NCBI GenBank assembly: GCA_947598395.1
Contig: CANQFG010000002.1
Location: forward strand, 7,813-71,812
Direction: 5' to 3'
Length of the DNA: 64,000 nt
Source: an uncultured Bacilli bacterium
Lineage (GTDB): Bacteria; Bacillota_I; Bacilli_A; RF39; UBA660
Part shown: positions 5,418 to 39,499 of the stretch, in pieces
Position numbering within the stretch: the stretch's first letter is position 1
Layout of the letters: each line of letters opens with the position of its first letter
Position numbers and translations under genes: made by a program
The notes under the pieces: model-generated
The model's database searches: none
Told to the model about the DNA's origin: nothing
What the model saw: only the letters and a program-made list of their open reading frames with translations

Positions 5418-7169
5418 ATGGATAATAAAAAGAAGGGTTTTACTTTAATTGAGTTATTAGCTGTTATTATAATCTTAGCTTTGATAATGGTTATAGCTGT
5501 TCCTGCGGTTTTAGAGACGATGCGATCAGCACAAAAAGAATCGTTATATCTCTATGCGCAAAGTTTGCAATCGAAGGCCATCGCGAGATATACGCAAGAT
5601 CTCGATATGAATAAGGAAAATACGGATTGTGCTGTTTACGATATTTCCAAGAATTTGGATCTATCGGGAACCGGCGATTATGAGGGCTGGGTCAAAGTCA
5701 GTCGGACGCCAACTAATTCGGGTAAACGGACGGCGCGCATCGAACTAAGTCATTCCGATACATTGCGCTATGTCAAATACTGCGTAGCTAAAGGTAGCTC
5801 TTGTACGCCCAATACCGCTTTTAATGCGGGCGAGGATAATAAAAAGGCCGTTATCGAAAGAAGTCTTGAAGCGGGCGAAGTCCTTTGTGCCAATTATCAA
5901 TATGCCGATAGCAATAAAGTCTTAAAGACGGCAGACACCCAATGTGTAACATACGATAAGGGGACGACGCTCAACGATACTTATACCTATAATGTCAATG
6001 TAACTTTAAAAGATGATACGTATGCGGTCGAAAATGTCCTCTTTAAAGAGGATATGTCCCGCGATGAATTCTTTGCGGCGATCGAAGACTATAATCAAAA
6101 ACATAAAAATGATGCCAATAAGTTAGCTATTGCCTCGCCTAGTTGTACGGCCGAGGAAAGTGTCAAGGGAACGACAACGCGAGGAACGACGGAAGTTACC
6201 AATAATGAGGCGACGACGCGAGGAACGACGGAGGCGTCAAGTAAGACGACATCGACGCGTTCGACGAATGTCATCGATCCAAGCAGCAACACGACAAGGG
6301 GCACGAGTGAGGTCATCACCAGTTCCTCGACGACGCGGGCGACGACGACCGAGACGACCACGACGATCAATGTCGAAGATCGGAGCTTATTACTCACGAG
6401 TTTGAATATTGCTGGCTATAACATTAACTTCGACCCTCTCAAATTTTACTATACCCTCGATGTACCATATAATGTCACGAATTTAAATATCAGTGCTACG
6501 GCCGAGCGACCTGATGTAAGCGTCGTTCAAGTAGCCGGAAATGATTACTTAGGTGTCGGCGATAATCCCGTAATCGTCACTGTCTTTAATCAAACGACGG
6601 GCGCCAAAGCCAATTATCGCATCAACGTCACGCGCTTCAATGAAACTGGAGTACGGCCAACGAGTCCAACTAATCCAATCGTCGATCCAAACAATAACGA
6701 AGAAGGTAAACCGGATCCAACAATTGAAGAGAGTAATGCGGCTCTTGCCTATTTGGCGATATCTGGATATGACCTCGACTTCGATCCTGATGTCTACGAA
6801 TACACATTGACGACCAAGGGCGAAAGTAAATTATATGTCAATTATCGTGCAGCCAGTGAAAATGCCGTCGTAGCTCTTTATGGCAATGAAGAAGTCAAAG
6901 ATGGCGGCGAAATAACCCTCTTCGTTCAAAGTGAAAATGGCTACTATAATAAGACCTATAAGATTAAGATTCAATTTGAACAAGTTGCCTCGACGGGAAC
7001 AAAAGTCCTAAGGGGAGTTGCCGTTGGCTTGGGCGTCTTGCTCATAATTCTTTTGATAATAATCAGTTTAAATAAGAAAAAGCGCAGTAATAATAATTCG
7101 GATACGGTTGAAGACAAAGAAAATAATTCGGAACCAGATAATAACTCGACGAATGCGAATAGTGTGTAA
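5418..7169 (+). CDS. prepilin-type N-terminal domain protein fused to a Thr-rich linker, two cadherin-like beta-sandwich domains and a C-terminal TM anchor
   Basis: MDNKKKG|FTLIELLAVIIILALIMV is a class III (type IV pilin) signal with Glu at +5. Two domains begin LLTSLNIAGYNINFDP..YYTL and LAYLAISGYDLDFDP..YEYTL (cadherin-like beta-sandwich pattern). The C-terminus GVAVGLGVLLIILLIIISLNKKKR is a TM segment plus a basic stop-transfer. Confidence 0.8.
   Translation: MDNKKKGFTLIELLAVIIILALIMVIAVPAVLETMRSAQKESLYLYAQSLQSKAIARYTQDLDMNKENTDCAVYDISKNLDLSGTGDYEGWVKVSRTPTNSGKRTARIELSHSDTLRYVKYCVAKGSSCTPNTAFNAGEDNKKAVIERSLEAGEVLCANYQYADSNKVLKTADTQCVTYDKGTTLNDTYTYNVNVTLKDDTYAVENVLFKEDMSRDEFFAAIEDYNQKHKNDANKLAIASPSCTAEESVKGTTTRGTTEVTNNEATTRGTTEASSKTTSTRSTNVIDPSSNTTRGTSEVITSSSTTRATTTETTTTINVEDRSLLLTSLNIAGYNINFDPLKFYYTLDVPYNVTNLNISATAERPDVSVVQVAGNDYLGVGDNPVIVTVFNQTTGAKANYRINVTRFNETGVRPTSPTNPIVDPNNNEEGKPDPTIEESNAALAYLAISGYDLDFDPDVYEYTLTTKGESKLYVNYRAASENAVVALYGNEEVKDGGEITLFVQSENGYYNKTYKIKIQFEQVASTGTKVLRGVAVGLGVLLIILLIIISLNKKKRSNNNSDTVEDKENNSEPDNNSTNANSV
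6165..6370 (+). repeat. Thr/Arg/Ser-rich low-complexity coding repeat (TTRGTTE units)
   Basis: ACG/ACGACG-rich stretch encoding GTTTRGTTE..ATTRGTTE..NTTRGTSE..TTRATTTETTTT. It also creates the spurious overlapping ORFs 6095..6397(-) and 6130..6405(+). Confidence 0.8.
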
Positions 7170-7235: not shown

Positions 7236-7259
7236 TTAAGTATGATAGAAAGAGGATTT

Positions 7260-7793
7260 ATGATGAAGAAGAAAAATGGTTTTACATTAGTAGAATTACT
7301 AGCGGTTATCGTCATATTAGCAATTATAATGGTCATTGCCATTCCTGCCGTATTAGATGTTATGAACCGTTCAAGAAAAAGTGCATTTGTGCTCTATGCG
7401 CAAAAGGTTATTCGTGATACAAAAACTCAATATTCCTATGATGCTGGTTTAGGAGCAGCAACGGGAGCGGGATACTTTGTATACAGTATTGTCGATGATT
7501 TAGATTATGATTCGACTGGTGATTATCAAGGGTATGTCGTCGTCAATGCTACTAACGTTGATAAACCAGAATATATATTATTCTTATATGATAATAATTA
7601 TATGATTTTAAATTATAATGTAACTGATTTTGGAATGCCGACGACAAGTGATAGTGCCATTCAAGCTTATTCGGCAAGTGCTGTTGGAACGCAAGCTAAT
7701 AATGCTAAAGATGCTTGTACAGCAGCGGGAGCTGTCGGTGGTGTCGAATGTTATAATCGCGATGGTTTCGTAATTGTTAAAAAGGATGAATAA
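7260..7793 (+). CDS. prepilin-type N-terminal cleavage/methylation domain protein (small pilin/pseudopilin-like)
   Basis: MMKKKNG|FTLVELLAVIVILAIIMVIAIPAV. It shares post-helix blocks with the 5418 product (YAQK/YAQS, STGDYQGYVVV vs GTGDYEGWVKV). The ATG at 7260 follows AAGAGGA. Confidence 0.8.
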   Translation: MMKKKNGFTLVELLAVIVILAIIMVIAIPAVLDVMNRSRKSAFVLYAQKVIRDTKTQYSYDAGLGAATGAGYFVYSIVDDLDYDSTGDYQGYVVVNATNVDKPEYILFLYDNNYMILNYNVTDFGMPTTSDSAIQAYSASAVGTQANNAKDACTAAGAVGGVECYNRDGFVIVKKDE

Positions 7794-11313: not shown

Positions 11314-12459
11314 ATGAAGAGAATAATACGTGGTATTGATATTCCATTATTGATTACTAGTTCATTATTATGCCTATTGGGTTTAGTTATGATCTTCAGT
11401 GCATCTTCTATTTCATCAGTCTTACAATATGGTCAATCCGAATATTATTATTTGATTCGCGAAGTTATCTTTGTCTTGATGGGCGTATTCATCTCGTTTA
11501 TCGTCATTCGCGTTCCCCTTCGCGAGTATAATGTCATATCGCGTTTGGGAATGATTGGAATTATTATCTTATTGTTGGCTTTAAAGACTTATGGTACGGT
11601 TGTCAATTCGGCTAATAGTTGGTTTCGCATCGGATCTTTTTCCCTTCAACCTAGTGAATTTGCCAAATCGATTATCATTTTATATTTGGCCAGTTGGTAT
11701 GGCCATAAAAAGAATTTTAAATCGATATATGATTTATTTTTGCCCTTATCGTTATGCGTCGTCATCTTTGGGCTTGTCGCGTTAGAACCGGATTTAGGAA
11801 CGGCGATTATCATTGCCGTCATATGTATGTTTATCTTTTTTTCGCTACCCATTCAAAAAAATAAGATAATGAATATCCTAAAGGCGAGCGTGGCCATCGT
11901 CATCCTCTTGGGCATCTTTATGTTGCAATTCAATCAAGAATATTTGACGGATTCCCAAGCTAGTCGGTTTATCTTTAAACATCCGTGTGATCGTTATTTA
12001 GAGGAGACGGGGTATCAAGTATGCAATGGCTATATCGCGATTAATAATGGGGGCTTATTTGGCGTTGGCCTCGGCAAATCGACGCAGAAGTATCTATATT
12101 TACCGGAAGCCCATACGGACTTTATCTTTCCAATTATCGTCGAAGAGTTGGGTCTCGTCGGGGGTGGATGTGTCTTGCTTTTATATATAATATTGCTGTA
12201 TCGCATCTTGGCCATTGCGCGCAATGCGACGAATTTGACAGCTTCGATCATTGCCTTTGGAACATTTGCCTATATCTTGACCCATATCGTCGTCAATCTC
12301 GGTGGTTTGCTAGCGCTCATTCCTCTAACGGGTGTACCACTTCCATTCTTGAGCTATGGTGGTAGTTTTATGATCAATTTGATCTTCATGTTGACGCTTA
12401 CCCAAAGGGTGGCAATCGAAACTAAGATGCGGAAGACGCAGATTCAAAGGAGAGGATAA
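11314..12459 (+). CDS. SEDS family peptidoglycan polymerase (FtsW/RodA)
   Basis: FSLQPSEFAK, PEAHTDFIFPIIVEELG, LIPLTGVPLPFLSYGGS. Confidence 0.9.
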   Translation: MKRIIRGIDIPLLITSSLLCLLGLVMIFSASSISSVLQYGQSEYYYLIREVIFVLMGVFISFIVIRVPLREYNVISRLGMIGIIILLLALKTYGTVVNSANSWFRIGSFSLQPSEFAKSIIILYLASWYGHKKNFKSIYDLFLPLSLCVVIFGLVALEPDLGTAIIIAVICMFIFFSLPIQKNKIMNILKASVAIVILLGIFMLQFNQEYLTDSQASRFIFKHPCDRYLEETGYQVCNGYIAINNGGLFGVGLGKSTQKYLYLPEAHTDFIFPIIVEELGLVGGGCVLLLYIILLYRILAIARNATNLTASIIAFGTFAYILTHIVVNLGGLLALIPLTGVPLPFLSYGGSFMINLIFMLTLTQRVAIETKMRKTQIQRRG

Positions 12460-12460
12460 T

Positions 12461-13138
12461 ATGGCGGTTAATTATGAAAAATTGAATATCTTGATCGATG
12501 GCAATTATATTACCAATCAAGAAGATTTAATTCGGGCAATCAATGAACTAACATATGAATTTAATACCCGCGAATATCTCGAATTGATGGCCAATAATCT
12601 ACGTTATAGTAATCTTTCTAATAAAGATGAATTAGAAGATGCCATCAATTTAAAATTATTTGAATTTCTTAATATCGAAGCGCAAGCGGATAAGAAAGTA
12701 GTTGGTCAAGTAATTAATAGGGGGGATTTTAATAATTTACTTACTAAACAAAATACGTACAATGAAGAATTAAGTACTTTAGAGAAAAAGAGATTAAATA
12801 TGTATGTCGAAATCCTTTTAACAAAAGAAGCCGATCATACCATAACCGAAGAGGAACAAGGCTTATTAAATGCCTATGTCAATCCTTTACTAAGTATTTA
12901 TGACGATGCCTTGGAAGTTGTAGAGAATCATCCTTTAGATGATATAACGATGCGCCAAATTAGATCTTACTTAGCTAATCGCGAATCTTTGCATAATAAA
13001 TATAAGAAGGATATACCAACTTTAAAAAAGGAATATCATGATCGGGATTTTTCCAATGGCGTTGCCAATGTCATTATCCTCTTATCGATTGGCATTATAG
13101 CAATATTTGCAATTATGATTTTATCTCTTGCGAAGTAA
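12461..13138 (+). CDS. hypothetical tail-anchored protein
   Basis: Helical, acidic 200-aa region followed by a single C-terminal TM (VANVIILLSIGIIAIFAIMILSL). The start lies 1 nt after the SEDS gene stop. Confidence 0.5.
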   Translation: MAVNYEKLNILIDGNYITNQEDLIRAINELTYEFNTREYLELMANNLRYSNLSNKDELEDAINLKLFEFLNIEAQADKKVVGQVINRGDFNNLLTKQNTYNEELSTLEKKRLNMYVEILLTKEADHTITEEEQGLLNAYVNPLLSIYDDALEVVENHPLDDITMRQIRSYLANRESLHNKYKKDIPTLKKEYHDRDFSNGVANVIILLSIGIIAIFAIMILSLAK

Positions 13139-13177: not shown

Positions 13178-13720
13178 ATGGATTATATAGAAGAAACAGA
13201 ATTAAGCATGATGAAGGCTTTAGAAAATTTAGAAGCGCGTTTAATTACAGTTCGAGCTGGACGAGCTAATGCTAGTATGCTCAATGGGATTATGGTCGAT
13301 TATTATGGAACCCCAACGGCTATCAATGCCCTTGCCAACATTACCGTACCGGAAGCTCGGCAATTGTTTATTAAACCTTTCGATCGAAGTGCCTTAAAAG
13401 ATATCGAAAGAGCGATCAATGAGGCAAATATTGGTATTACACCTACTAATAATGGCGAAATTATTATTTTAACGATTCCTCAACTTACGGAAGAGACGCG
13501 TAGAAATTATGTCAAACAAGTTCATGAGATGGGTGAACAAGCTAAGGTAGCTTTACGCAATGCTCGGGCGAATGCCAATAATGCCATTAAAAAGGATGAA
13601 TCGTTAACCGAAGATAATGAAAAAGCCTTGATGAATGATATTCAAGATTTAATCAATGAATATAATAAAAAAGTCGATGAAATGATTAAAGAAAAGGAAA
13701 ATGAGTTAATGAGTGTTTAG
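13178..13720 (+). CDS. frr: ribosome recycling factor
   Basis: Full-length match to the RRF pattern (LITVRAGRANASMLNGIMVDYYGTPT..., IPQLTEETRRNYVK). Confidence 0.95.
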   Translation: MDYIEETELSMMKALENLEARLITVRAGRANASMLNGIMVDYYGTPTAINALANITVPEARQLFIKPFDRSALKDIERAINEANIGITPTNNGEIIILTIPQLTEETRRNYVKQVHEMGEQAKVALRNARANANNAIKKDESLTEDNEKALMNDIQDLINEYNKKVDEMIKEKENELMSV

Positions 13721-13853
13721 CTCGTTTTCTTTTTTAGAAAATAATTTGCTTAAACTATGTAAATCTTGTCAAATTAATTGACATTTTTGCTTGCCATTAT
13801 TGCATGAAGTAGGGCTTTTGGTTATACTAAAAAATATAGAATAGAGGTAAATT

Positions 13854-14486
13854 ATGACAAAGAAAACGACAAAAACAAATAGCAAAATACCCCAAAACCG
13901 AAAAATACGCGGGGGGGGGTCACATAGCTCATCTCGTGAAAAACAAAGAACAGGGATAGCTATTGCAATATTATTAATGGCCATTGGTTTCGCAGCCGTA
14001 ACGACGACATTGACGATCAATGGAACCATTAAATATGGATATGATAAGGACAAATTTATCGTAAAGTTTACTGCTGCAACATTAGATGAAACGGAAGCTG
14101 GTGAGGGTGTTGAAAATCCTAAGATCGATGAAAGTGGTCAATCGATAACTTATACGACTAAGGATTTAAAGACGATTGGTGAATCTAGTGTTTTGGATTT
14201 TACGGTTACCAACCAATCGACTCAATATGATGCCAGTGTAACAATTGAATGTAAAGAAAGTGACGCTGAATTACCTAAAACAAAGCTTGTTGATAGTTAT
14301 GTAACCCTTACTGAAAAGTTTGGTGAAGATGATGCTGAAACTCCGGTTACAATAACGGCCAATGGTGGAACCGCTAAAGGCAAAATTACAGTTACTTTAA
14401 TAAAAGCAACTACGGAAGCTAGGGATACGACATTTAAATGTACTCTAACTGCTACTCCAGTTGAAATAACTAGTCGAGCTAATTAA
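13854..14486 (+). CDS. family paralog 1 (small): basic tail + signal-anchor + two-Cys N-module
   Basis: SREKQR-TGIAIAILLMAIGFAAVTTTLTINGTIKYGYDKDKFIVKFT, ...YTTKDLKTIG.SSVL.FTVTN.STQYDASVTIEC..., ...FKCTLTATPVE. RBS GAGGT. Contains an in-frame G9. Confidence 0.8.
   Translation: MTKKTTKTNSKIPQNRKIRGGGSHSSSREKQRTGIAIAILLMAIGFAAVTTTLTINGTIKYGYDKDKFIVKFTAATLDETEAGEGVENPKIDESGQSITYTTKDLKTIGESSVLDFTVTNQSTQYDASVTIECKESDAELPKTKLVDSYVTLTEKFGEDDAETPVTITANGGTAKGKITVTLIKATTEARDTTFKCTLTATPVEITSRAN
13911..13919 (+). repeat. G9 homopolymer inside the CDS (codons 20-22, GGG GGG GGG)
   Basis: Read directly: cgc ggggggggg tca. G8 or G10 would produce stops within 3-16 codons, before the hydrophobic segment. 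Confidence 0.95.
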
Positions 14487-14554: not shown

Positions 14555-15226
14555 ATGACAAAGAAAACTACAAAAAAATCGACAACTAAAAAAGCTCCAA
14601 TAACCCAAAAAGTAACAGGAGCAAGTAGACATAGTACATCACGTGAAAAACAAAGAATGGGGATTCTCATCGCCATTCTATTAATGGCAATCGGATTTGC
14701 CACGGTTACAACAACTTTAACAATTAATGGAACTATTAAATATGGATATGATAAAAATGACTTTATCGTAAAATTTACGCAAGCAGCAGTTGATGAAGTT
14801 GAATCAACAGCAAGTGAAGGAAATAAACCAACAATTGGTGATGATGGTAAGACAATCACATATACGACAAAAGATTTGAAATCATTAAATGATAAGAGTG
14901 TTTTGACATTTACTGTTTCAAATGGAAGTAGTCAATATGATGCTAGTGTTACTATATCTTGCGAAGCGGTAACTAATGCTGAAACCGAAGAAACCGAAAC
15001 AACGACGGCAGCAACTTCTAAAAACGTTAAGGATTATGTAACTGTTGAAGCAAAAATAAATGGTCAAACGGCTTCTGAAGCTGTTCAAATTGACGCAAAA
15101 GGTAATAAACAAGGAACAGTAACTGTTACTTTAAATAAAGTTTCCATCGACGAAATGACTGGTAAGGTAACTTGTAAACTAAATGCAACGCCAGTTGAAA
15201 GAAATAGCGCAGCTACTGGTGAATAA
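14555..15226 (+). CDS. family paralog 2 (small)
   Basis: Same architecture and motifs as 13854..14486 (SREKQRMGILIAILLMAIGFATVTTTLTINGTIKYGYDKNDFIVKFT; QYDASVTISC; VTCKLNATPVE). Confidence 0.8.
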   Translation: MTKKTTKKSTTKKAPITQKVTGASRHSTSREKQRMGILIAILLMAIGFATVTTTLTINGTIKYGYDKNDFIVKFTQAAVDEVESTASEGNKPTIGDDGKTITYTTKDLKSLNDKSVLTFTVSNGSSQYDASVTISCEAVTNAETEETETTTAATSKNVKDYVTVEAKINGQTASEAVQIDAKGNKQGTVTVTLNKVSIDEMTGKVTCKLNATPVERNSAATGE

Positions 15227-15253: not shown

Positions 15254-15889
15254 ATGGCACAAACGAATTCTAAAAAGAAAACGACAGCTAAAAATACTAA
15301 AACAAGAAAAATAACAAATAATAATCATAATACTTCTCGTGAAAAGCAAAGAACTGCTATTGCCATTGCCATTTTACTTATGGCCGTTGGCTTTGCAGCC
15401 GTTACGACAACATTAACAATAAATGGAACAATTAATTATGGATATGATAAAGATAAATTCATCGTTAAATTTACTGAAGCATCATTAGATGGCGTAAACT
15501 CGAACGACGTAGAAGAAGGTAAACCTACAATTGATTCTGAAGGACATACGATTACTTATACATCAAAAGAATTAAAGACGATAAATGAAGAAAGTGTGTT
15601 AACTTTTAAGGTTCAAAATCAATCAACCCAATATGATGCTACTGTTAATATTAAATGTGAAGAAGTTGATGATCGTGGTGAGAATTCTACTACAAAATTA
15701 GTTAATAAATACATTACTCTTAATGGAAAACTCGGTGAAAATGAGCAACCTACTAGGATTGATGCTGGTAGTACTGCTGATGGTACAGTAACCGTTAAAT
15801 TGATTAAAGCTACTGTTGATGAACAAAGTACAAATATCAAGTGTACTTTAGAGGCTACGCCATTAGAAAGAACATCATCAACTCAATAG
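15254..15889 (+). CDS. family paralog 3 (small)
   Basis: Same architecture (SREKQRTAIAIAILLMAVGFAAVTTTLTINGTINYGYDKDKFIVKFT; QYDATVNIKC; IKCTLEATPLE). RBS GGAGG. Confidence 0.8.
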   Translation: MAQTNSKKKTTAKNTKTRKITNNNHNTSREKQRTAIAIAILLMAVGFAAVTTTLTINGTINYGYDKDKFIVKFTEASLDGVNSNDVEEGKPTIDSEGHTITYTSKELKTINEESVLTFKVQNQSTQYDATVNIKCEEVDDRGENSTTKLVNKYITLNGKLGENEQPTRIDAGSTADGTVTVKLIKATVDEQSTNIKCTLEATPLERTSSTQ

Positions 15890-15892
15890 TAT

Positions 15893-15912
15893 AGAGCATA
15901 TGCTCTTTTTTT
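15893..15912 (+). terminator. rho-independent terminator after the paralog triplet
   Basis: AGAGCA/TGCTCT palindrome followed by a T run. Confidence 0.6.
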
Positions 15913-17876: not shown

Positions 17877-17898
17877 CGTCGATTATTCGACGCTTTTT
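17877..17898 (+). terminator. rho-independent terminator of mnmA
   Basis: CGTCG (17877-81) pairs with CGACG (17888-92), followed by CTTTTT. Confidence 0.6.
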
Positions 17899-17970
17899 AT
17901 GTTGAAAAAAATGCAACTGGGGGGGGGTGCAATACAATAGAGAAAATGGAAAATAGGAGCAGAGATTGAC
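17899..17970 (+). promoter_or_regulatory. conserved leader/promoter element, copy A (contains G9 and a TACAAT box)
   Basis: 72 nt nearly identical to 19723..19793. TTGAAA at 17902-07, G9 at 17919-27, TACAAT at 17933-38, AGGAG at 17955-59. Confidence 0.6.
17919..17927 (+). repeat. G9 homopolymer 43 nt upstream of the start codon
   Basis: Read directly: actg ggggggggg tgcaaTACAAT. Confidence 0.95.
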
Positions 17971-19359
17971 ATGAAAAAGAGATGGATACTAGTAACTATA
18001 TTATTTCTTAGTATTGGATTTGCATCCGTAACAGCAGTCTTAACGATAACCGGAAAAGTAAATATAAACTTTGATGACGAAGATTATCAAGTATACTTTT
18101 CCGATGCTTATTTAGATGATGTAAGACATATGGAATTTATTGATGATACGAGAAAGAAAATAACATTCACAACTAATGCCTTAACCTCAGTAGGCGATAC
18201 AAGTATTTTAAAATATGAAGTAACGAATAATAGTAAACAATATGATGCGGAAGTAAGTGTCGAATGTACGCCAAGTGAAACTGACTATTATAGTGTAAGT
18301 AATAGTTTAACAGAAAGAATAAATGCGCAAAGTCGAGAAAGTGGAACGATAACTATTGAGTTAAAGAAAGTTGTGTTAGAGGAAACAGAAGAAACATTTA
18401 CTTGTAATCTAACAATAAATGCTACGTCGAGAGAAGATGTAGAAGAATCATTGCTATGTGAAAATGAAATAAATCATATTTGGAATTTTGATTATACAGG
18501 AGGAGAACAAGAATTTATCCCTGACTGTGCAGGAAATTATAAATTAGAAGTATGGGGAGCACAAGGAGGAATTGATACTACTTCGTCTTTTACTTTTCAA
18601 GGTTATGGTGGCTATGCCATAGGAAATGTAAAATTAGAAGCCAATCAACGAATATATATCAATGTTGGAGGACAAGGAGAAGGTTACACTGGAGTAGGAG
18701 AAAAAATAAATCGTGACTATAAAGGCGGTTATAATGGAGGTGGAAATGGTGGATCTAAAAGTTCTCAATATGGCTTTGGCGGAGGTGGAGCAACGCATAT
18801 CGCTTTAGAAATGGGATTGCTCAGTGAATTTGAAAGTAAAAAAGAAAATCTTTTAATCGTTGCTGGAGGTGGCGGTGGAAATTCTTCTTATGAAAATAAA
18901 GTGTTTGGGGGCTCTGGAGGTGGAATCCAAGGCGGTAATGGGAATAATATTGTTGTTAATTCTGCTGACCGCTACTATGGAACAGGTGGAACTCAAGAAC
19001 AAGGTGGAGATGATAGTACTAGTGGTTTTCAAAATGATCGTGCTTTAGGAACATTCGGTCAAGGAGGAATCTATTATCGCGATCCATATAAAGAGTTTAA
19101 CTATGTTAGTGGTGCTGGAGGCGGAGGCGGTTACTATGGCGGAGGCGGAAGTTCTCGTGGGCATGCCAGTGCCGGTGGTGGATCTGGTTATATTGGAAAT
19201 GATTTATTAAGTGAAAAAGCTATGTACTGCTATAATTGTGAACCCAATGGAGAAGTAAAAACGAAAACGATTACTACCGAAAGTTTTAGTCAAGAAGCTC
19301 AAAGTATGTTTGCCAAACAAGGCAATGGGTATGCTAGAATAACTTATTTAGGAAAATAA
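17971..19359 (+). CDS. family paralog 4 (long): signal-anchor + two-Cys N-module + ALK/LTK-type glycine-rich domain
   Basis: MKKRWILVTILFLSIGFASVTAVLTITGKVNINF; QYDAEVSVEC; FTCNLTINA. The C-terminal part reads YKLEVWGAQGG..GYGGYAIGNV..IYINVGGQG..GGGGATHIAL..LLIVAGGGGG..GGSGGGIQGG..SGAGGGGGYYGGGG..AGGGSGYIG (bacterial glycine-rich domain pattern). Confidence 0.8.
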   Translation: MKKRWILVTILFLSIGFASVTAVLTITGKVNINFDDEDYQVYFSDAYLDDVRHMEFIDDTRKKITFTTNALTSVGDTSILKYEVTNNSKQYDAEVSVECTPSETDYYSVSNSLTERINAQSRESGTITIELKKVVLEETEETFTCNLTINATSREDVEESLLCENEINHIWNFDYTGGEQEFIPDCAGNYKLEVWGAQGGIDTTSSFTFQGYGGYAIGNVKLEANQRIYINVGGQGEGYTGVGEKINRDYKGGYNGGGNGGSKSSQYGFGGGGATHIALEMGLLSEFESKKENLLIVAGGGGGNSSYENKVFGGSGGGIQGGNGNNIVVNSADRYYGTGGTQEQGGDDSTSGFQNDRALGTFGQGGIYYRDPYKEFNYVSGAGGGGGYYGGGGSSRGHASAGGGSGYIGNDLLSEKAMYCYNCEPNGEVKTKTITTESFSQEAQSMFAKQGNGYARITYLGK

Positions 19360-19537: not shown

Positions 19538-19700
19538 TACTATCACCTCCACTACTTTCTATAGATTAAACTGGTCAACCAGCAACCCCCTGAAAATAAT
19601 GGCAACTACAAACTCAGTGGTCCTCCTGAGGGTAATATTATAGATGGTAAAAAATAAAAGGAAATAGACCTGACAAAAAAAGACAAAAGATTTCAAAAAT

Positions 19701-19721
19701 GCCGTATTTTCGGCTTTTTTT
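19701..19721 (+). terminator. rho-independent terminator preceding leader copy B
   Basis: GCCG/CGGC hairpin followed by T7. Confidence 0.45.
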
Positions 19722-19722
19722 C

Positions 19723-19793
19723 ATGTTGAAAAAAATGCGACTGGGGGGGGTGCAATACAATAGAGAAAATGGAAAATAGGAGCAGAGATCGAC
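19723..19793 (+). promoter_or_regulatory. conserved leader/promoter element, copy B (contains G8 and a TACAAT box)
   Basis: Differs from copy A by 2 substitutions and the G-run length. TACAAT at 19756-61. Confidence 0.6.
19743..19750 (+). repeat. G8 homopolymer 43 nt upstream of the start codon
   Basis: Read directly: actg gggggggg tgcaaTACAAT. Confidence 0.95.
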
Positions 19794-21569
19794 ATGAAAA
19801 AAAGATGGGTATTATTAACTGTATTATTTTTAACTATTGGATTTGCATCAGTAGCAACAATACTAACAATAACGGGAAGAGTAAATATAAATTTTAATGA
19901 AGAAGATTATCAAATATACTTTAGTAAAGCTGTAGTAGATAGTATAGATAAGAGTTATGAAGTAATAGATCCAGATACGAGAAGGTCAATAAAATATTCA
20001 ACAAAAGATTTAAGTAAAGTAAGTGATACAAGTGTCTTGGAATATGAAGTAACAAATAATAGTACCCAATATGATGCAACAGTAGAGGTAGTATGTGAAG
20101 CAAAGACTGAAGATAAGGAAAAAGCTACTGAATATGTAACGATAACAAATGAAATGAAAAATAATACTATCAAAGCTCAGACGAGAGAAACTGGAACTGT
20201 AAGTGTTCAATTAAAGAAAGTAACAGTGGACCCAATTGATATAGAATTTACTTGTACATTAACAGTAAATCCTGTAGGAAATGATGTATTAAAAGAACCA
20301 GAATTAGCTGAGAATAGTTGTCGAGATATCGGAATACCAAGTTTGGGAGAAGGAGACAAATTAATACCGATAGTATTAGATGATGAAGGAAAAGCAACGC
20401 GAGTAGAGAAAACGGATACTAATTGGTATGACTATTGCAAGAGAGAATGGGCGAATGCGGTCATATTAAATGAAGATGCAGATTTACCAGATGTTGGTGA
20501 AGAAATACCAGAAGCATCAATCGAAAGTTATTTTGTGTGGATACCAAAATACAAATATAAATTATGGAATGTTGAAACAGATAATACAGAAGTTGGAAAA
20601 CATAGTATAGAAATAATATTTGATACGCAAGATACAACAAATGTTCCAGGAGAATCATGTGAAACACCAAAGACTAGTGGAAATATTGGAGATTGTAAAG
20701 ATGGCGAATATATGACGCACCCAGCATTTATCTCATTTGGCGTAGATGGCCTCTGGGTTGGTAAATTTGAAACGGGTTATAAAGGAGCAAACGATAAAAC
20801 AAGTGCTGAACAAGATAATAATGAATCAAGTCATATAATAATAAAACCAAATGCTTATTCATGGCGAAAGATTACTGTCAAAAATATTTTTGAAGCATCA
20901 AAAAAATATAAAGAAAATTTACAATCACATATGATGAAGAACACGGAATGGGGAGCAGTAGCCTATCTATCGCATTCGATATTTGGTATAAATAAAGAGG
21001 TAACGATAAATAACAATAATAAATATAAGACTGGATATGCGGCTTTACCTACTACAGATCAAAGTAAAAATCCTGGTGAAGAAGGTGATGATGGAAATTC
21101 TAATACAGCATGGAATACTCAAAATGGAGTTACAGCTAGTACGACGGGAAATATTACTGGTGTTTATGATATGTCTGGTGGAGCATGGGAGATTATGGCG
21201 GCTTATGTAGCAGAAGTTCCAAATGATCAAAGTGGATTTCAAGCTGAAGAATTGAAAAAAATAGATGCAAGATATGTTGATGTATATGAAAAAACAAGTA
21301 CAGGAATATCGTATGGAAAAATGATCTTAGGTGATGCCACGGGAGAAATGGGGCCTTTCGATAATTATGAAGATGGAGATAAAATAACAAGAGGGCACAA
21401 TCGTTGGTATGCCGACGTTTCTGTTTTCATTTACGCTTTGTCCCCTTGGTTCGGACGAGGCAGCTATAGCGGCGGCGGAGTTGTAGCTGGACAGTTCTAC
21501 TTCGATAGGTCCGCTGGTGCAGCCCGTGGAGGCGATGGCTTTCGCCTCGCTTTAGCTCCATCTAATTAA
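19794..21569 (+). CDS. family paralog 5 (long): signal-anchor + two-Cys N-module + linker + FGE-sulfatase-like domain
   Basis: MKKRWVLLTVLFLTIGFASVATILTITGRVNINF; QYDATVEVVC; FTCTLTVNP. The C-terminal ~350 aa is homologous to the partial ORF 1..1124. Confidence 0.8.
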   Translation: MKKRWVLLTVLFLTIGFASVATILTITGRVNINFNEEDYQIYFSKAVVDSIDKSYEVIDPDTRRSIKYSTKDLSKVSDTSVLEYEVTNNSTQYDATVEVVCEAKTEDKEKATEYVTITNEMKNNTIKAQTRETGTVSVQLKKVTVDPIDIEFTCTLTVNPVGNDVLKEPELAENSCRDIGIPSLGEGDKLIPIVLDDEGKATRVEKTDTNWYDYCKREWANAVILNEDADLPDVGEEIPEASIESYFVWIPKYKYKLWNVETDNTEVGKHSIEIIFDTQDTTNVPGESCETPKTSGNIGDCKDGEYMTHPAFISFGVDGLWVGKFETGYKGANDKTSAEQDNNESSHIIIKPNAYSWRKITVKNIFEASKKYKENLQSHMMKNTEWGAVAYLSHSIFGINKEVTINNNNKYKTGYAALPTTDQSKNPGEEGDDGNSNTAWNTQNGVTASTTGNITGVYDMSGGAWEIMAAYVAEVPNDQSGFQAEELKKIDARYVDVYEKTSTGISYGKMILGDATGEMGPFDNYEDGDKITRGHNRWYADVSVFIYALSPWFGRGSYSGGGVVAGQFYFDRSAGAARGGDGFRLALAPSN

Positions 21570-30236: not shown

Positions 30237-31835
30237 ATGAAGCGAGGATTTAAATCCTTATTAATGATTTTAGGTGTCTTTTGGATTTTATCCGCACCAC
30301 AAAATGTCTGGGCTGCCGAATATAAATTAGGCAAAGCCGAAAAGTCAGAAAATATAACGAAAATACCAGTAACGATACATATTGGCGATAACGAAAGTAT
30401 TACGCAAGCCAAGCTTACGTGTGATGCCAAAAATTCCGATGTCGATTGCCGCATCGAGATTATCGAAGGGTTAGGATTTACGGCCAATGAGAGTGCCAAT
30501 GGCATCGTATTGAGCTATATCAATAGTTCTGATCCGAGCGATAACAATTTTCCAAAGGGCGATACGGTAGTTGCCAATGTCATCTTGACCAATAATTCGA
30601 CGTCAGCGTTGAGCAATGTGCGCGTCGATTTAGAGGGCTCGACGATTGGCGATGTAGCTCAAAGTGATTATACTGATGCCTCATTGGGAGCTAAGCCCGT
30701 TGAAAAACCTAAATCTGGGGATGCCACTTTAAAGAGTCTCAAGGTCTCGCAAGGAAAGATGAGTCCCGAATTTAAAAATGATGTCTATGATTATACGATT
30801 TATGATATTGCCGATACCATCAATAGCGTCAAGATAACCTATGAATGTAATGCGCCAGCCGATGAAGGCGAGTGTTCCGATTCGGGATTCCATGGTGGAA
30901 AGAGTACCAATGGTTCGACCGTTACTTTAAATCAAGGGGAAAATAAAGTCTATTTTGAAATTACGAGTCCCGATGGCAATAACCATGTCACCTATAATTT
31001 AACGATCTATCGTGGGGAATCGACTTTTAACTCCGATAAGTTGAGTTCCCTAAGTGTTGGCGACTATACTTTGACGCCTGCCTTCAGTGCCGATGTCGTC
31101 TCCTATAACTTGACTGTTCCAAATACGATATCGAGCATTAAAGATCTTATTGCTTATACCCTCCAAGATGAAAAGGCCAAAGTCGATGTTCAAGGGGCCG
31201 AAAATTTAATCGTCGGTTTGAATCGCGTCACCTTAAAGGTCGATAATGTCAATGGCGATTCTTCGAAGACATATGTCATCAATGTCACGCGGTTATCCGA
31301 AGAAAATATTGAAATTGTCAGTTATAAAAACAATATCGTCACCTATAAAGATGAAAATGGCATCGAATCCAAGATCGAAATGACCGAATTCGAAAAACAA
31401 TATCCAACCGAAGCGGCCAAGATTAAAAATGGAATTTATAAATTCGATGAAGAGGGAAATCTCATCGTCGAAAATACCAATCCAACGGTTACGGAAGAAC
31501 CCGAGGCCGACGAAGAGAAAAAAGATAATAAAGTATGGTTAATCGTCGTCTTAGTTATCGTCGGTTTAGCTATTATTATCGTTTCGGGTATCCTCATCTT
31601 CCGCAAGAAGGATAAAAAGGAAGAGTTGAGTGATGCCAAAGAGGAAAATATCGAAAAACATGAAGACAAGGCACCAGCTGAAGAAGAAGATGAAAACTAT
31701 AGTGAAGATGGCATCGAAGAAGCCGTCATCGGTGGGGAATTTTCCGATGATCTCGATACGACGGTCGATGTCGATATTGCCCTTAATGATTTGATGAATA
31801 CCAAACAATATGAATTTGATGATGATCAAGAATAG
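30237..31835 (+). CDS. surface protein: signal peptide + N-domain + two cadherin-like beta-sandwich domains + C-terminal TM anchor + acidic tail
   Basis: Signal peptide LLMILGVFWILSAPQNVWA|AE. LKSLKVSQGKMSPEFKNDVYDYTIY and LSSLSVGDYTLTPAFSADVVSYNLTV are cadherin-like starts. TM segment WLIVVLVIVGLAIIIVSGILIF followed by RKKDKK. Confidence 0.75.
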   Translation: MKRGFKSLLMILGVFWILSAPQNVWAAEYKLGKAEKSENITKIPVTIHIGDNESITQAKLTCDAKNSDVDCRIEIIEGLGFTANESANGIVLSYINSSDPSDNNFPKGDTVVANVILTNNSTSALSNVRVDLEGSTIGDVAQSDYTDASLGAKPVEKPKSGDATLKSLKVSQGKMSPEFKNDVYDYTIYDIADTINSVKITYECNAPADEGECSDSGFHGGKSTNGSTVTLNQGENKVYFEITSPDGNNHVTYNLTIYRGESTFNSDKLSSLSVGDYTLTPAFSADVVSYNLTVPNTISSIKDLIAYTLQDEKAKVDVQGAENLIVGLNRVTLKVDNVNGDSSKTYVINVTRLSEENIEIVSYKNNIVTYKDENGIESKIEMTEFEKQYPTEAAKIKNGIYKFDEEGNLIVENTNPTVTEEPEADEEKKDNKVWLIVVLVIVGLAIIIVSGILIFRKKDKKEELSDAKEENIEKHEDKAPAEEEDENYSEDGIEEAVIGGEFSDDLDTTVDVDIALNDLMNTKQYEFDDDQE

Positions 31836-37747: not shown

Positions 37748-39499
37748 ATGAATTTAAAAGACTTATATATAAATTTTTTTGTCAGCAAGGGGCATAAGCA
37801 AATTCCAAGTGCGCCCGTCGTTCCGGAAAATGATCCTTCAGTTCTCTTTAATACGGCAGGTATGCAGCCGCTTATTCCCAATCTCTTAGGGGCACCACAT
37901 CCTTATGGAACGCGGTTATGTGATTATCAAAAGTGCATTCGGACGGTCGATTTGGATGCCATTGGCGATACCTATCATCATACTTTCTTTGAGATGCTTG
38001 GCAATTGGAGTTTAGGAGATTACTTTAAAAAGGAAGCTATTACGTGGAGTTTTGAATTTTTAACGGAAGTGTTAAATATTCCCCTAAAACGTTTAGCCGT
38101 AACTGTCTTTGCGGGCAATGATGATGTTCCCTTTGATGAAGAGGCCTATAATATATGGCGGTCACTCGGGGTAAGTGAAGCGCGGATTGCCAAGACAGTC
38201 GATGATAATTTTTGGATTGCCGGCGATATTGGACCATGTGGTCCGGATACGGAGATGTACTATTGGCGCAGCAACGATCCAATTCCCGAAAATTTTAATC
38301 CCGAAGATAACCGTTGGGTAGAAATTTGGAACGATGTCTTCATGCAATATGTCCGTCATGAGGATGGAACGTTTACCGAACTTCCCAAGAAGAATGTCGA
38401 TACCGGAATGGGCGTCGAACGGACGACGGCCATCTTGGAAGGCAAAAACGATAATTATGAAGCAAGTATTTGGCAACCGATAATCAAGGAAATCGAAGAT
38501 ATCAGCCAAAAATCTTATTATGGCCACGAGGAGAGTATGCGCATCATTGCCGATCACTTGCGTACCGCCGTCTTTATTGCTGCCGATCCAGCCGGCATTA
38601 AGCCGAGCAATATTGATCAAGGTTATATCTTGCGGCGCATTATCAGACGGGCTATTCGTCATGCCAAAAAATTGGGCATCGATATCAATACGAATTGGGA
38701 AGAGCGCATCGCCAAACGCATTATGGATGAATATCAAGAATATTATCATGAACTCGTTACCAATCGCGATGTCGTCATTCAAGTATTGGAAACGGAAAAG
38801 AATAAATTTAATCGAACTCTCGAAAAAGGATTGCGCGAATTTTCTAAATTGACGGAAAATTTAACGGATAAAGTATTAAATAAGGATATCGCCTTTAAAT
38901 TATACGATACGTATGGTTTTCCCATCGAACTAACCGAAGAGTTGGCCTCCGAAAAGGGCATTACCGTCGATATCGAAGGCTTTAAGGAGAAGTTTAAGGC
39001 CCATCAAGAGTTATCGCGAACGAATTCACAAGGTAAATTTAAAGGTGGTCTTGCGGGAAATTCGGAAATTGAAACGAAGTATCATACGGCTACGCATTTG
39101 CTCAATGCTGCCTTAAAGGAAGTCATCAGCAAGGATATTCATCAAAGGGGTTCGAATATTACGGCCGAACGCATGCGCTTTGACTTTAACTGCGATCATA
39201 AACTTACGGATGAAGAGAAGGCTAGTGTCGAGAATTTAGTCAATAAATGGATTAATGATAAATTAGATGTCGTCGTTACGGAGATGGATAAGAATGAAGC
39301 TATTGCTTCGGGAGCCGAGTGTATGTTTATCGAAAAATATCCCGATCGCGTAACGGTATATACGATTGGCGATATATCGAAGGAATTATGTGGGGGCCCA
39401 CATGTCAAAAATACGGGAGAACTCGGACACTTTAAGATCGTCAAGGAAGAGGCTAGTTCAGCGGGTGTTCGACGCATTAAAGCCGTCTTGGAAGATTAG
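37748..39499 (+). CDS. alaS: alanine--tRNA ligase, short form (583 aa)
   Basis: FFVSKGHKQIPSAPVVP.NDPSVLFNTAGMQP, HHTFFEMLGNWSLGDYFK, GPCGPDTEMYY, WNDVFMQY, VDTGMGVERT, ADHLR, GYILRRIIRRA, YDTYGFP, then the editing-core motifs HTATHLL and CGGPHV. Ends at GVRRIKAVLED. Confidence 0.85.
   Translation: MNLKDLYINFFVSKGHKQIPSAPVVPENDPSVLFNTAGMQPLIPNLLGAPHPYGTRLCDYQKCIRTVDLDAIGDTYHHTFFEMLGNWSLGDYFKKEAITWSFEFLTEVLNIPLKRLAVTVFAGNDDVPFDEEAYNIWRSLGVSEARIAKTVDDNFWIAGDIGPCGPDTEMYYWRSNDPIPENFNPEDNRWVEIWNDVFMQYVRHEDGTFTELPKKNVDTGMGVERTTAILEGKNDNYEASIWQPIIKEIEDISQKSYYGHEESMRIIADHLRTAVFIAADPAGIKPSNIDQGYILRRIIRRAIRHAKKLGIDINTNWEERIAKRIMDEYQEYYHELVTNRDVVIQVLETEKNKFNRTLEKGLREFSKLTENLTDKVLNKDIAFKLYDTYGFPIELTEELASEKGITVDIEGFKEKFKAHQELSRTNSQGKFKGGLAGNSEIETKYHTATHLLNAALKEVISKDIHQRGSNITAERMRFDFNCDHKLTDEEKASVENLVNKWINDKLDVVVTEMDKNEAIASGAECMFIEKYPDRVTVYTIGDISKELCGGPHVKNTGELGHFKIVKEEASSAGVRRIKAVLED

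Follow-up and report, generated by a model that had tools for sequence, protein, structure and literature searches.

A G9 tract in the 5′ coding region of a small surface-protein-like gene of an uncultured gut Bacilli bacterium: a probable slipped-strand switch among poly-G promoter cassettes

The gene designated here as ORF1, the first of three small tandem paralogs in a stretch of 64,000 nucleotides from an uncultured Bacilli bacterium (the window, as the whole stretch of DNA that was analysed will be called from now on), carries in its 5′ coding region an uninterrupted tract of nine G's, and the gain or loss of a single G puts the gene out of frame ahead of its membrane segment. We estimate at about 65% the probability that translation of ORF1 is switched by slipped-strand changes of this tract, as one part of a poly-G contingency system that spans the genome and acts, at its other tracts, through promoter spacing. 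An ON/OFF switch of this type had been proposed in an earlier note, made from the sequence alone, and the proposal stands in part: the reading frames, the codon usage, the gene family concerned and the variation of the sibling tracts all speak for it, while the length of the coding tract is constant in the assemblies compared and no OFF-type product is on record.

The coding tract and its reading frames

The elements on which the argument rests are the following.

ORF1, 13854..14486, plus strand: gene for a protein of 210 aa, first of three tandem small paralogs.
G9 homopolymer, 13911..13919, plus strand: codons 20-22 (GGG GGG GGG) of ORF1; proposed translational ON/OFF switch, currently ON.
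TAG stop reached with a G10 (or G7) tract, 13925..13927, plus strand: from the sequence, with simulated tract lengths.
TAG stop reached with a G8 (or G11) tract, 13957..13959, plus strand: from the sequence, with simulated tract lengths.
ORF2, 14555..15226, plus strand: tandem paralog of 223 aa without the tract, with GASRHS at the aligned position.
ORF3, 15254..15889, plus strand: tandem paralog of 211 aa without the tract, with NNNHNT at the aligned position.
Terminator-like hairpin, 15893-15906: located 3′ of ORF3.

The tract occurs in the context cgc-GGGGGGGGG-tca, encoding R19-G20-G21-G22-S23. Its description in the earlier note was accurate throughout, that is, the run at 13911-13919 with its cgc and tca flanks, the R-GGG-S sequence at codons 19-23, and the GASRHS and NNNHNT sequences found at the aligned positions of ORF2 and ORF3. 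The statements made there about the shifted frames were likewise borne out, every one of them, when other tract lengths were simulated. A G10 tract leads to a 24-aa product ending in ...RGGGVT-stop, and a G8 tract to a 34-aa product ending in ...RGGGHIAHLVKNKEQG-stop, i.e. ...HIAHLVKNKEQG; both stops precede the membrane segment (the export segment of the note), which is therefore absent from either product, and the reading frame is kept by G6 and G12. Length changes of +1 and of -1 thus both abolish the ORF1 product. No alternative start is present between the tract and the membrane helix of ORF1, the next in-frame start being an ATG at codon 42, inside the helix and devoid of a Shine-Dalgarno sequence.

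The tract can be placed in translated sequence because a Shine-Dalgarno sequence, AGAGGT, is found upstream, at 13843-13848, 5 nt 5′ of the ORF1 ATG, and because the K/T/S-rich N-terminal tail is conserved across ORF1-3. The nine G's are thereby located within the translated 5′ part of ORF1, in a cytoplasmic tail of low complexity that is specific to the lineage and precedes the membrane helix. As no terminator is found before 15893, ORF1-3 may form one operon or transcription unit.

Composition, codon usage and the likelihood of a chance origin

The earlier note held that a 9-nt G run is very unlikely to occur by chance in DNA so rich in A and T, and this claim needs to be taken apart. With 37.5% G+C, the window is only moderately AT-rich, and the number of runs alone is only moderately significant. 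Just three G/C runs of 7 nt or more occur in the 64 kb, namely 13911-19 (G9), 17919-27 (G9) and 19743-50 (G8), and all three are 8 nt or longer, where ~0.19 runs of that length would be expected with independent bases and ~0.4 under an order-1 or order-3 Markov model. Three such runs were reached in only 2-4 of 200 simulations (P ~0.01-0.02), a modest excess.

Placement and codon usage are stronger arguments against chance than the run count. All three long G runs lie within ~60 nt of the start codons of one five-member gene family, and the 64 kb are otherwise poor in G runs, with no G7 and three G6 (at 1235, 12720 and 60733), where 8-9 runs of 6 nt or more would be expected. GGG is the rarest Gly codon of the window (149 of 1162 Gly codons, 12.8%). 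Among the 11 runs of three or more glycines encoded by its ORFs, the one in ORF1 is the only one written entirely in GGG, the other ten using mixed codons, as do all seven Gly3-5 runs of the glycine-rich domain of ORF4, a further member of the family (see below). The tract is therefore explained neither by composition nor by codon usage, and its origin by chance is unlikely; that part of the claim stood, on codon usage and family placement rather than on the run count.

Sibling tracts lie in a repeated promoter cassette

The two other long tracts of the window, and those found on further contigs of the same samples, belong to the following elements.

Cassette 5′ of ORF4, 17877..17970, plus strand: G9 at 17919-17927 in the window.
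ORF4, 17971..19359, plus strand: paralog of 462 aa, with an N-terminal family module and the glycine-rich domain PF12810.
Second copy of the cassette, 5′ of ORF5, 19700..19793, plus strand: G8 at 19743-19750.
ORF5, 19794..21569, plus strand: paralog of 591 aa, with an N-terminal family module and an uncharacterised C-terminal region.
Further cassette tracts: L037 9837-9845; L040 7664-7671; L041 7143-7150 and 16790-16798.
Further cassette tracts: L042 8-16; L043 1714-1721, 9950-9957 and 13146-13154.

According to the earlier note, the only other G runs of 8 nt or more belong to the same family as the coding tract. This is correct inasmuch as ORF4 and ORF5 are members, but the runs themselves are not in-frame: both are intergenic, ~45 nt upstream of ORF4 and ORF5, respectively. 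Whereas the note treated them as the same kind of thing as the coding tract, they are promoter-region tracts, and their mode of action differs from that of the coding tract. Both form part of a ~95-bp repeat made of the hairpin that terminates the preceding gene, GTTGAAAAAAATGC(A/G)ACT, G8/G9, TGCAATACAAT, an AGGAG leader and the ATG. At ORF4, the order is the mnmA terminator hairpin, GTTGAAAAAAATGCAACT, G9, the -10-like TGCAATACAAT and the leader, whose Shine-Dalgarno sequence is AGGAG, and across the dispersed loci the cassette can be written as terminator, GTTGAAAAA..GCAACT, G8/G9, TGCAATACAAT and AGGAG leader. The best hexamer fit (ATGCAA/ATGCGA-16/15-TACAAT) puts the tract in the spacer, with only 8/12 matches; since the -35 hexamer (ATGCAA or TGAGCA) is weak, the promoter-spacer model is less secure in this species, and a consensus promoter scan of the window did not flag the cassette hexamers. 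The coding tract itself was also considered as a captured promoter cassette, a reading that was rejected: its flanks do not align to the cassette, and no hexamers resembling a promoter surround it (6/12 matches).

When ORF4 was used as the query, additional paralogs with 68-73% identity (P0017-P0019) came to light elsewhere in the same samples, on other contigs, each with the same cassette upstream. Contig L043 contains three more cassettes, of which one precedes the gene for a secreted protein outside the family (1760-2281), one precedes an ORF5-like gene with an in-frame TAG, and the third lies at the end of the contig. The organism thus possesses at least nine cassette loci (two in the window plus seven further ones from the same samples), all with G8 or G9. 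The cassette is a recurrent end point of metagenome contigs, which is what a dispersed repeat would lead one to expect. Exact protein look-ups for ORF4, ORF5 and P0016 returned no match.

Several observations on these loci may be added. The A run 5′ of the GCAACT of the cassette varies, with A7 in the window (17903-17909), A6 in L007 (about 13650-13670) and A8 in L043 (9935-9942), and the T run of the cassette terminator also varies (T5 vs. T7), so that the cassette contains more than one variable homopolymer. The ORF5-like paralog of L043 (10001-11785, cassette with G8) is split by its in-frame TAG (…ILNDT*TAPADGEP…) and is either a pseudogene or a candidate for read-through. On L041, a Tad/T2SSE-type locus ends at a G9 cassette, and on L037 a DDE transposase (11519-12997) lies directly 3′ of the P0017 paralog.

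Tract length across assemblies of the same organism

The ORF1-3 locus was recovered by exact-protein look-up in contigs from ERZ27060145, ERZ27249440, ERZ27249446 and ERR10663690-93. Counting the window, nine assemblies were compared (the other eight include L001-L005, L007 and L036), which represent three genotypes, come from ENA, Logan and NCBI, and cover at least four ENA samples and four Logan runs. They are consensus sequences at ~4-6x coverage, in which minority alleles are invisible. Five of the contigs match the window at 100% identity, L001 differs from it by 5 SNPs in 12.1 kb, and L007 differs at 73 positions in 13.7 kb.

A difference in tract length between strains or assemblies, one of the checks suggested in the earlier note, did not emerge at 13911: each of the nine assemblies, across the three genotypes, has nine G's in the coding tract, which is a weak test because only consensus sequences at this coverage were compared. 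OFF alleles were also sought through the neighbors ORF2 and frr, an approach that is unbiased for tract length, and every contig obtained in this way had G9. The JGI metagenomes, a collection from which the organism is absent, gave no match to gapped DNA patterns representing the coding tract or the cassette.

The promoter tracts of the same sampled material did change, while the coding tract remained constant. The tract of ORF4 is G9 in the window and in L002 and G8 in L001 and L007, and at the P0017 locus three samples have G9 while a fourth has G8. Promoter-tract length thus differs between near-identical assemblies at two cassette loci, although errors of sequencing or assembly could account for part of such G8/G9 differences.

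Poly-G runs in other gut Bacilli lineages

A scan of species-representative genomes yielded 26 loci (409 kb) from uncultured Bacilli or Erysipelotrichales-type gut MAGs, whose best aligned segments share 30-44% identity with ORF1. The scan turned up no genome belonging to the species of the window itself; the best match was 41% identical. These 409 kb contain nine G/C runs of 7 nt or more, and the runs of 8 nt or more are eight G runs, all of them on the sense strand upstream of a family gene or operon, either 41-60 nt upstream of the family gene or 639 nt upstream with one gene for a 200-aa membrane protein in between. In five of the eight, the run (G8) separates the two hexamers of a near-canonical sigma-70 promoter, TTGACA/TTGAAA/TTGCAA-16-TAAAAT, with 9-11/12 matches. 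Two paralogous loci of one MAG (L013 and L017) carry G10 and G9. None of the family genes at the 26 loci contains a coding tract; no ortholog with such a tract was found in other species, and hence there is no sign that the coding tract has been maintained over evolutionary time.

In four other MAGs (L015 9361-13813, and also L022, L025 and L031), a G8 promoter drives a two-gene unit, in which a 200-aa single-pass membrane protein that matches no known family is followed, after 1-2 nt, by an adhesin-like protein of the family with 1,268-1,735 aa and Listeria-Bacteroides repeats. The adhesin-like protein of L015 ends in a glycine-rich tail like that of ORF4.

ORF1 and its N-terminal module family

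The ORF1 protein is laid out as a K/T/S-rich cytoplasmic tail (residues 1-33), a membrane or signal helix (~34-59) and a beta-sandwich ectodomain. An invariant motif, GFAxVTTxLxINGTI, marks the end of the helix in the ORF1-3 alignment, and it could be a signal-peptidase site or a signal anchor. The AlphaFold model shows one N-terminal helix followed by a beta-sandwich, with a mean pLDDT of 68 that is higher over most of residues 61-207. From this layout, the ORF1 product is predicted to be a small membrane-anchored or secreted protein that is probably exposed at the surface. Neither Pfam nor NCBIfam gave a match for ORF1 at E <=1, and the PDB contained no sequence match; a Foldseek comparison against the PDB produced no significant match, the best being chaperone-usher pilin domains (E ~0.01, TM-score 0.3-0.45).

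Two known classes of surface protein were considered and found no support. ORF1 does not qualify as a TasA/camelysin-type, SipW-dependent fibre protein, since neither that family nor the SipW-cognate signal-peptide models gave a Pfam or NCBIfam match at E <=1 and no PDB sequence or significant fold matched, nor as a type IV pilin-like protein, because the prepilin motif PF07963 has no match in ORF1-5. Matches to PF07963 are found instead in the proteins encoded at 5418-7169 and 7242-7793, 6-8 kb upstream of ORF1; these carry prepilin-type N-methylation motifs, one of them together with a cadherin-like domain, and a further cadherin-like protein is encoded at 30237-31835.

Only 15 proteins related to ORF1 were found in a word-indexed search, while a profile search retrieved 1,557 cluster representatives at E <=1e-3 and 637 at <=1e-10, corresponding to a family of ~1,500 clusters at 50% identity. 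In this search, the module was always found at the extreme N-terminus of proteins of ~150 to 1,766 aa. It consists of the helix, the GFAxVTTxLxINGTI motif and a ~130-aa beta-sandwich with a conserved N-x-S-x-QYDA-x-V-x-I-x-C pattern, and, judged by sequence, it appears to be an undescribed domain family, with no model in Pfam or NCBIfam. The larger members carry Listeria-Bacteroides repeats, DUF285 and LRR domains; such architectures, and that of ORF4, look typical of surface adhesin-like proteins.

The comparison of the window with L007 disclosed an additional feature of the ORF1 ectodomain.

Mosaic patch in the ORF1 ectodomain, 14048..14282, plus strand: 49 of the 73 positions at which the window and L007 differ over 13.7 kb.

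Over these 235 bp, the alleles of the window and L007 are 81% identical (19% divergent), on a background that is otherwise 99.9% identical. The patch looks like the outcome of recombination with, or of diversifying selection on, an exposed loop region, and divergence so localised in the ectodomain is what diversifying selection on a surface protein would be expected to produce. Two other sources were dismissed, namely gene conversion from ORF2 or ORF3, to which the patch shows 68-70% identity as opposed to 81% to the window allele, and a diversity-generating retroelement, rejected by eye because the substitutions are of all types and are not restricted to A positions.

Alternative explanations for the coding tract

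The strongest competitor, which we consider unlikely but which has to be weighed seriously, is that the G9 tract merely encodes a fixed Gly-Gly-Gly, mutable in principle but unused as a switch, in a gene that is expressed constitutively. The run would have originated, for instance, by local G-biased mutation or as a by-product of recombination, and its frame would be kept by purifying selection. The constancy of G9 in every assembly and genotype fits this explanation, L007 with its divergent ectodomain patch included, and so do the lack of coding tracts in the family genes of other MAGs and the fact that no truncated, OFF-type ORF1 product is on record among ~15 billion proteins. However, that constancy was sampled in three genotypes and in consensus sequences, and a G9 homopolymer is intrinsically prone to slippage. 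Moreover, starting from the ORF2-like GGAGCAAGT, five substitutions toward the rarest Gly codon would be needed to generate the tract, and the genome, which otherwise avoids G runs, presents G8/G9 specifically at the 5′ ends of this family.

Far less probable is a role at the RNA or protein level, be it transcriptional slippage, ribosomal frameshifting or pausing, or anti-Shine-Dalgarno pairing, the last of which would tune the yield of ORF1 or its coupling to ORF2/ORF3. The tract is, in principle, long enough for polymerase slippage, it is monomorphic in DNA, and ORF1-3 look like one transcription unit. Nevertheless, the shifted frames end within 2-13 codons, so that nothing recognisable would be made, and neither a downstream stimulatory structure nor an alternative ORF is present; the sibling tracts, in turn, are non-coding and vary in DNA length, which points to a mechanism acting on DNA. 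Finally, a sequencing or assembly artefact (two-colour-chemistry poly-G or a collapsed homopolymer, for example), which the earlier note had named as a possible refutation and which the error-proneness of homopolymers and the ~4-6x coverage of the public contigs could suggest, is effectively refuted, as the same G9 with the same flanks recurs in nine independently assembled contigs from three sources, lies in frame and internal to the contigs, and has analogs in MAGs from unrelated studies.

A model for poly-G switching and its significance

The explanation that we favor, slipped-strand switching of the coding tract, could be integrated with the other observations in the following way. ORF1 would be a contingency gene, with the G9 in its 5′ coding region as a hypermutable site at which slipped-strand mispairing during replication adds or removes one G. 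With G10, translation would stop at codon 25, and with G8 at codon 35, in both cases before the hydrophobic export segment, and no surface protein would be made; a second slip would restore the ORF1 frame. Three or four glycines would presumably be tolerated, because the tract resides in a disordered cytoplasmic tail. If ORF1-3 are contained in one transcript, an early stop in ORF1 might, in addition, lower the expression of ORF2 and ORF3 by polarity. At nine or more other genes, which belong for the most part to the same family, the G8 or G9 between the -35-like and -10-like hexamers of the repeated cassette would set the promoter spacing, and thereby the level of transcription. Taken together, the tracts would allow a clonal population to display different combinations of surface proteins, among which host immunity or phage may select.

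In its broadest form, the model describes a two-arm contingency system of walled, spore-forming gut Bacilli, in which portable G8/G9 cassettes at nine or more loci per genome and an occasional in-frame tract would bring about the combinatorial expression of one module family; to this we assign even odds. Such a system would be previously undescribed and Mollicutes-like; its module family is fused to adhesin-type domains, and the link with poly-G recurs in several uncultured lineages from the gut of mouse and human.

The window represents housekeeping DNA of a sporulating Firmicute with a cell wall, including frr, mnmA, dnaG, rpoD, lepA, era, recO, uvrC and relA, as well as genes for a PBP, FtsW, YqfD and YlbD. 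The nearest named RpoD sequences (92% identity) belong to "Bacilli bacterium" MAGs. Scans of the window for Rfam families, tRNAs and tandem repeats gave nothing relevant. The window also contains a gene resembling PD-(D/E)XK family transposases (1222-2097) and an alanyl-tRNA synthetase-like ORF (37748-39499) of 583 aa with the class II core and the SAD domain, typical bacterial AlaS being longer; an overlapping ORF is listed at 38520-38852, within the region of the latter.

Phase variation by simple repeats has been well studied in pathogens such as Neisseria, Haemophilus, Campylobacter and Mycoplasma; for uncultured commensal Firmicutes of the gut there is, to our knowledge, hardly any documentation of it. 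If the tracts do switch, the bacterium could vary the display of at least ten surface or secreted proteins, and the same design recurs in related gut lineages. The unannotated family would then be a likely target of host immunity or phage, and the assembly breaks at the cassette loci would find an explanation. Annotators should also be warned that, in that case, frameshifted 'pseudogenes' in these MAGs may be genes in the OFF phase.

Comparison with known systems

The closest precedent is provided by the poly-G tracts at the 5′ ends of surface genes in Mycoplasma agalactiae and M. bovis. The P48-like gene of M. agalactiae has a G10 in its 5′ coding region, the P68 gene of M. bovis has a tract of G8-10, of which nine G's allow translation of the complete protein, and every spma gene of M. 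agalactiae has a poly-G in its 5′ UTR (PMC2824730). The parallels with the system described here are several: a low-G+C genome of Bacilli/Mollicutes affinity with G8-G13 at the 5′ ends of surface genes; a coding tract that precedes the signal sequence or lies inside it, as in P48-like and P68, with nine G's being the in-frame length, as in P68; and non-coding tracts upstream of a paralogous family, as in spma. In addition, DUF285, a domain of Mycoplasma surface proteins, is present in some relatives of the ORF1 family. However, unlike P48, P68 and Spma, the proteins of the ORF1 family are not lipoproteins and are not homologous to them, and their host is a gut Firmicute that has a wall and forms spores (YqfD, YlbD, PBP, FtsW). 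The present system also departs from the Mycoplasma precedents in that the non-coding tracts lie in a repeated promoter cassette and in that no strain with an OFF-length coding tract was seen among the nine assemblies.

A second group of comparable systems is found in Campylobacter jejuni and Helicobacter pylori, in which intragenic tracts of G8-G11 bring about frameshift ON/OFF switching at many loci that affect surface structures; C. jejuni, in addition, lacks MutS/MutL. An intragenic G tract in an AT-rich genome, frameshift ON/OFF control and a multiplicity of surface loci are thus shared with the case of ORF1, but these organisms are Gram-negative Epsilonproteobacteria, and their tracts are mostly in glycosyltransferase, flagellar and capsule genes.

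Each arm of the proposed system has, moreover, a mechanistic counterpart elsewhere. In Neisseria pilC, the sequence encoding the signal peptide of a surface protein contains a poly-G, a G tract in leader-coding sequence being what is also found in ORF1. In porA, opc and the vlp genes of Mycoplasma hyorhinis, a homopolymer between the -35 and -10 elements tunes transcription by its length, and it is these that the sibling cassettes resemble, especially those of related MAGs with TTGACA-16-TAAAAT promoters. The phyla and proteins concerned in Neisseria and M. hyorhinis are, however, unrelated to those considered here. In the literature consulted, tracts of this kind were not described for Erysipelotrichales-type or uncultured gut Bacilli. 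Therefore, while the type of switch is already known, the novelty lies in the host group, in the protein family, which is unannotated, and in the recurrent cassette.
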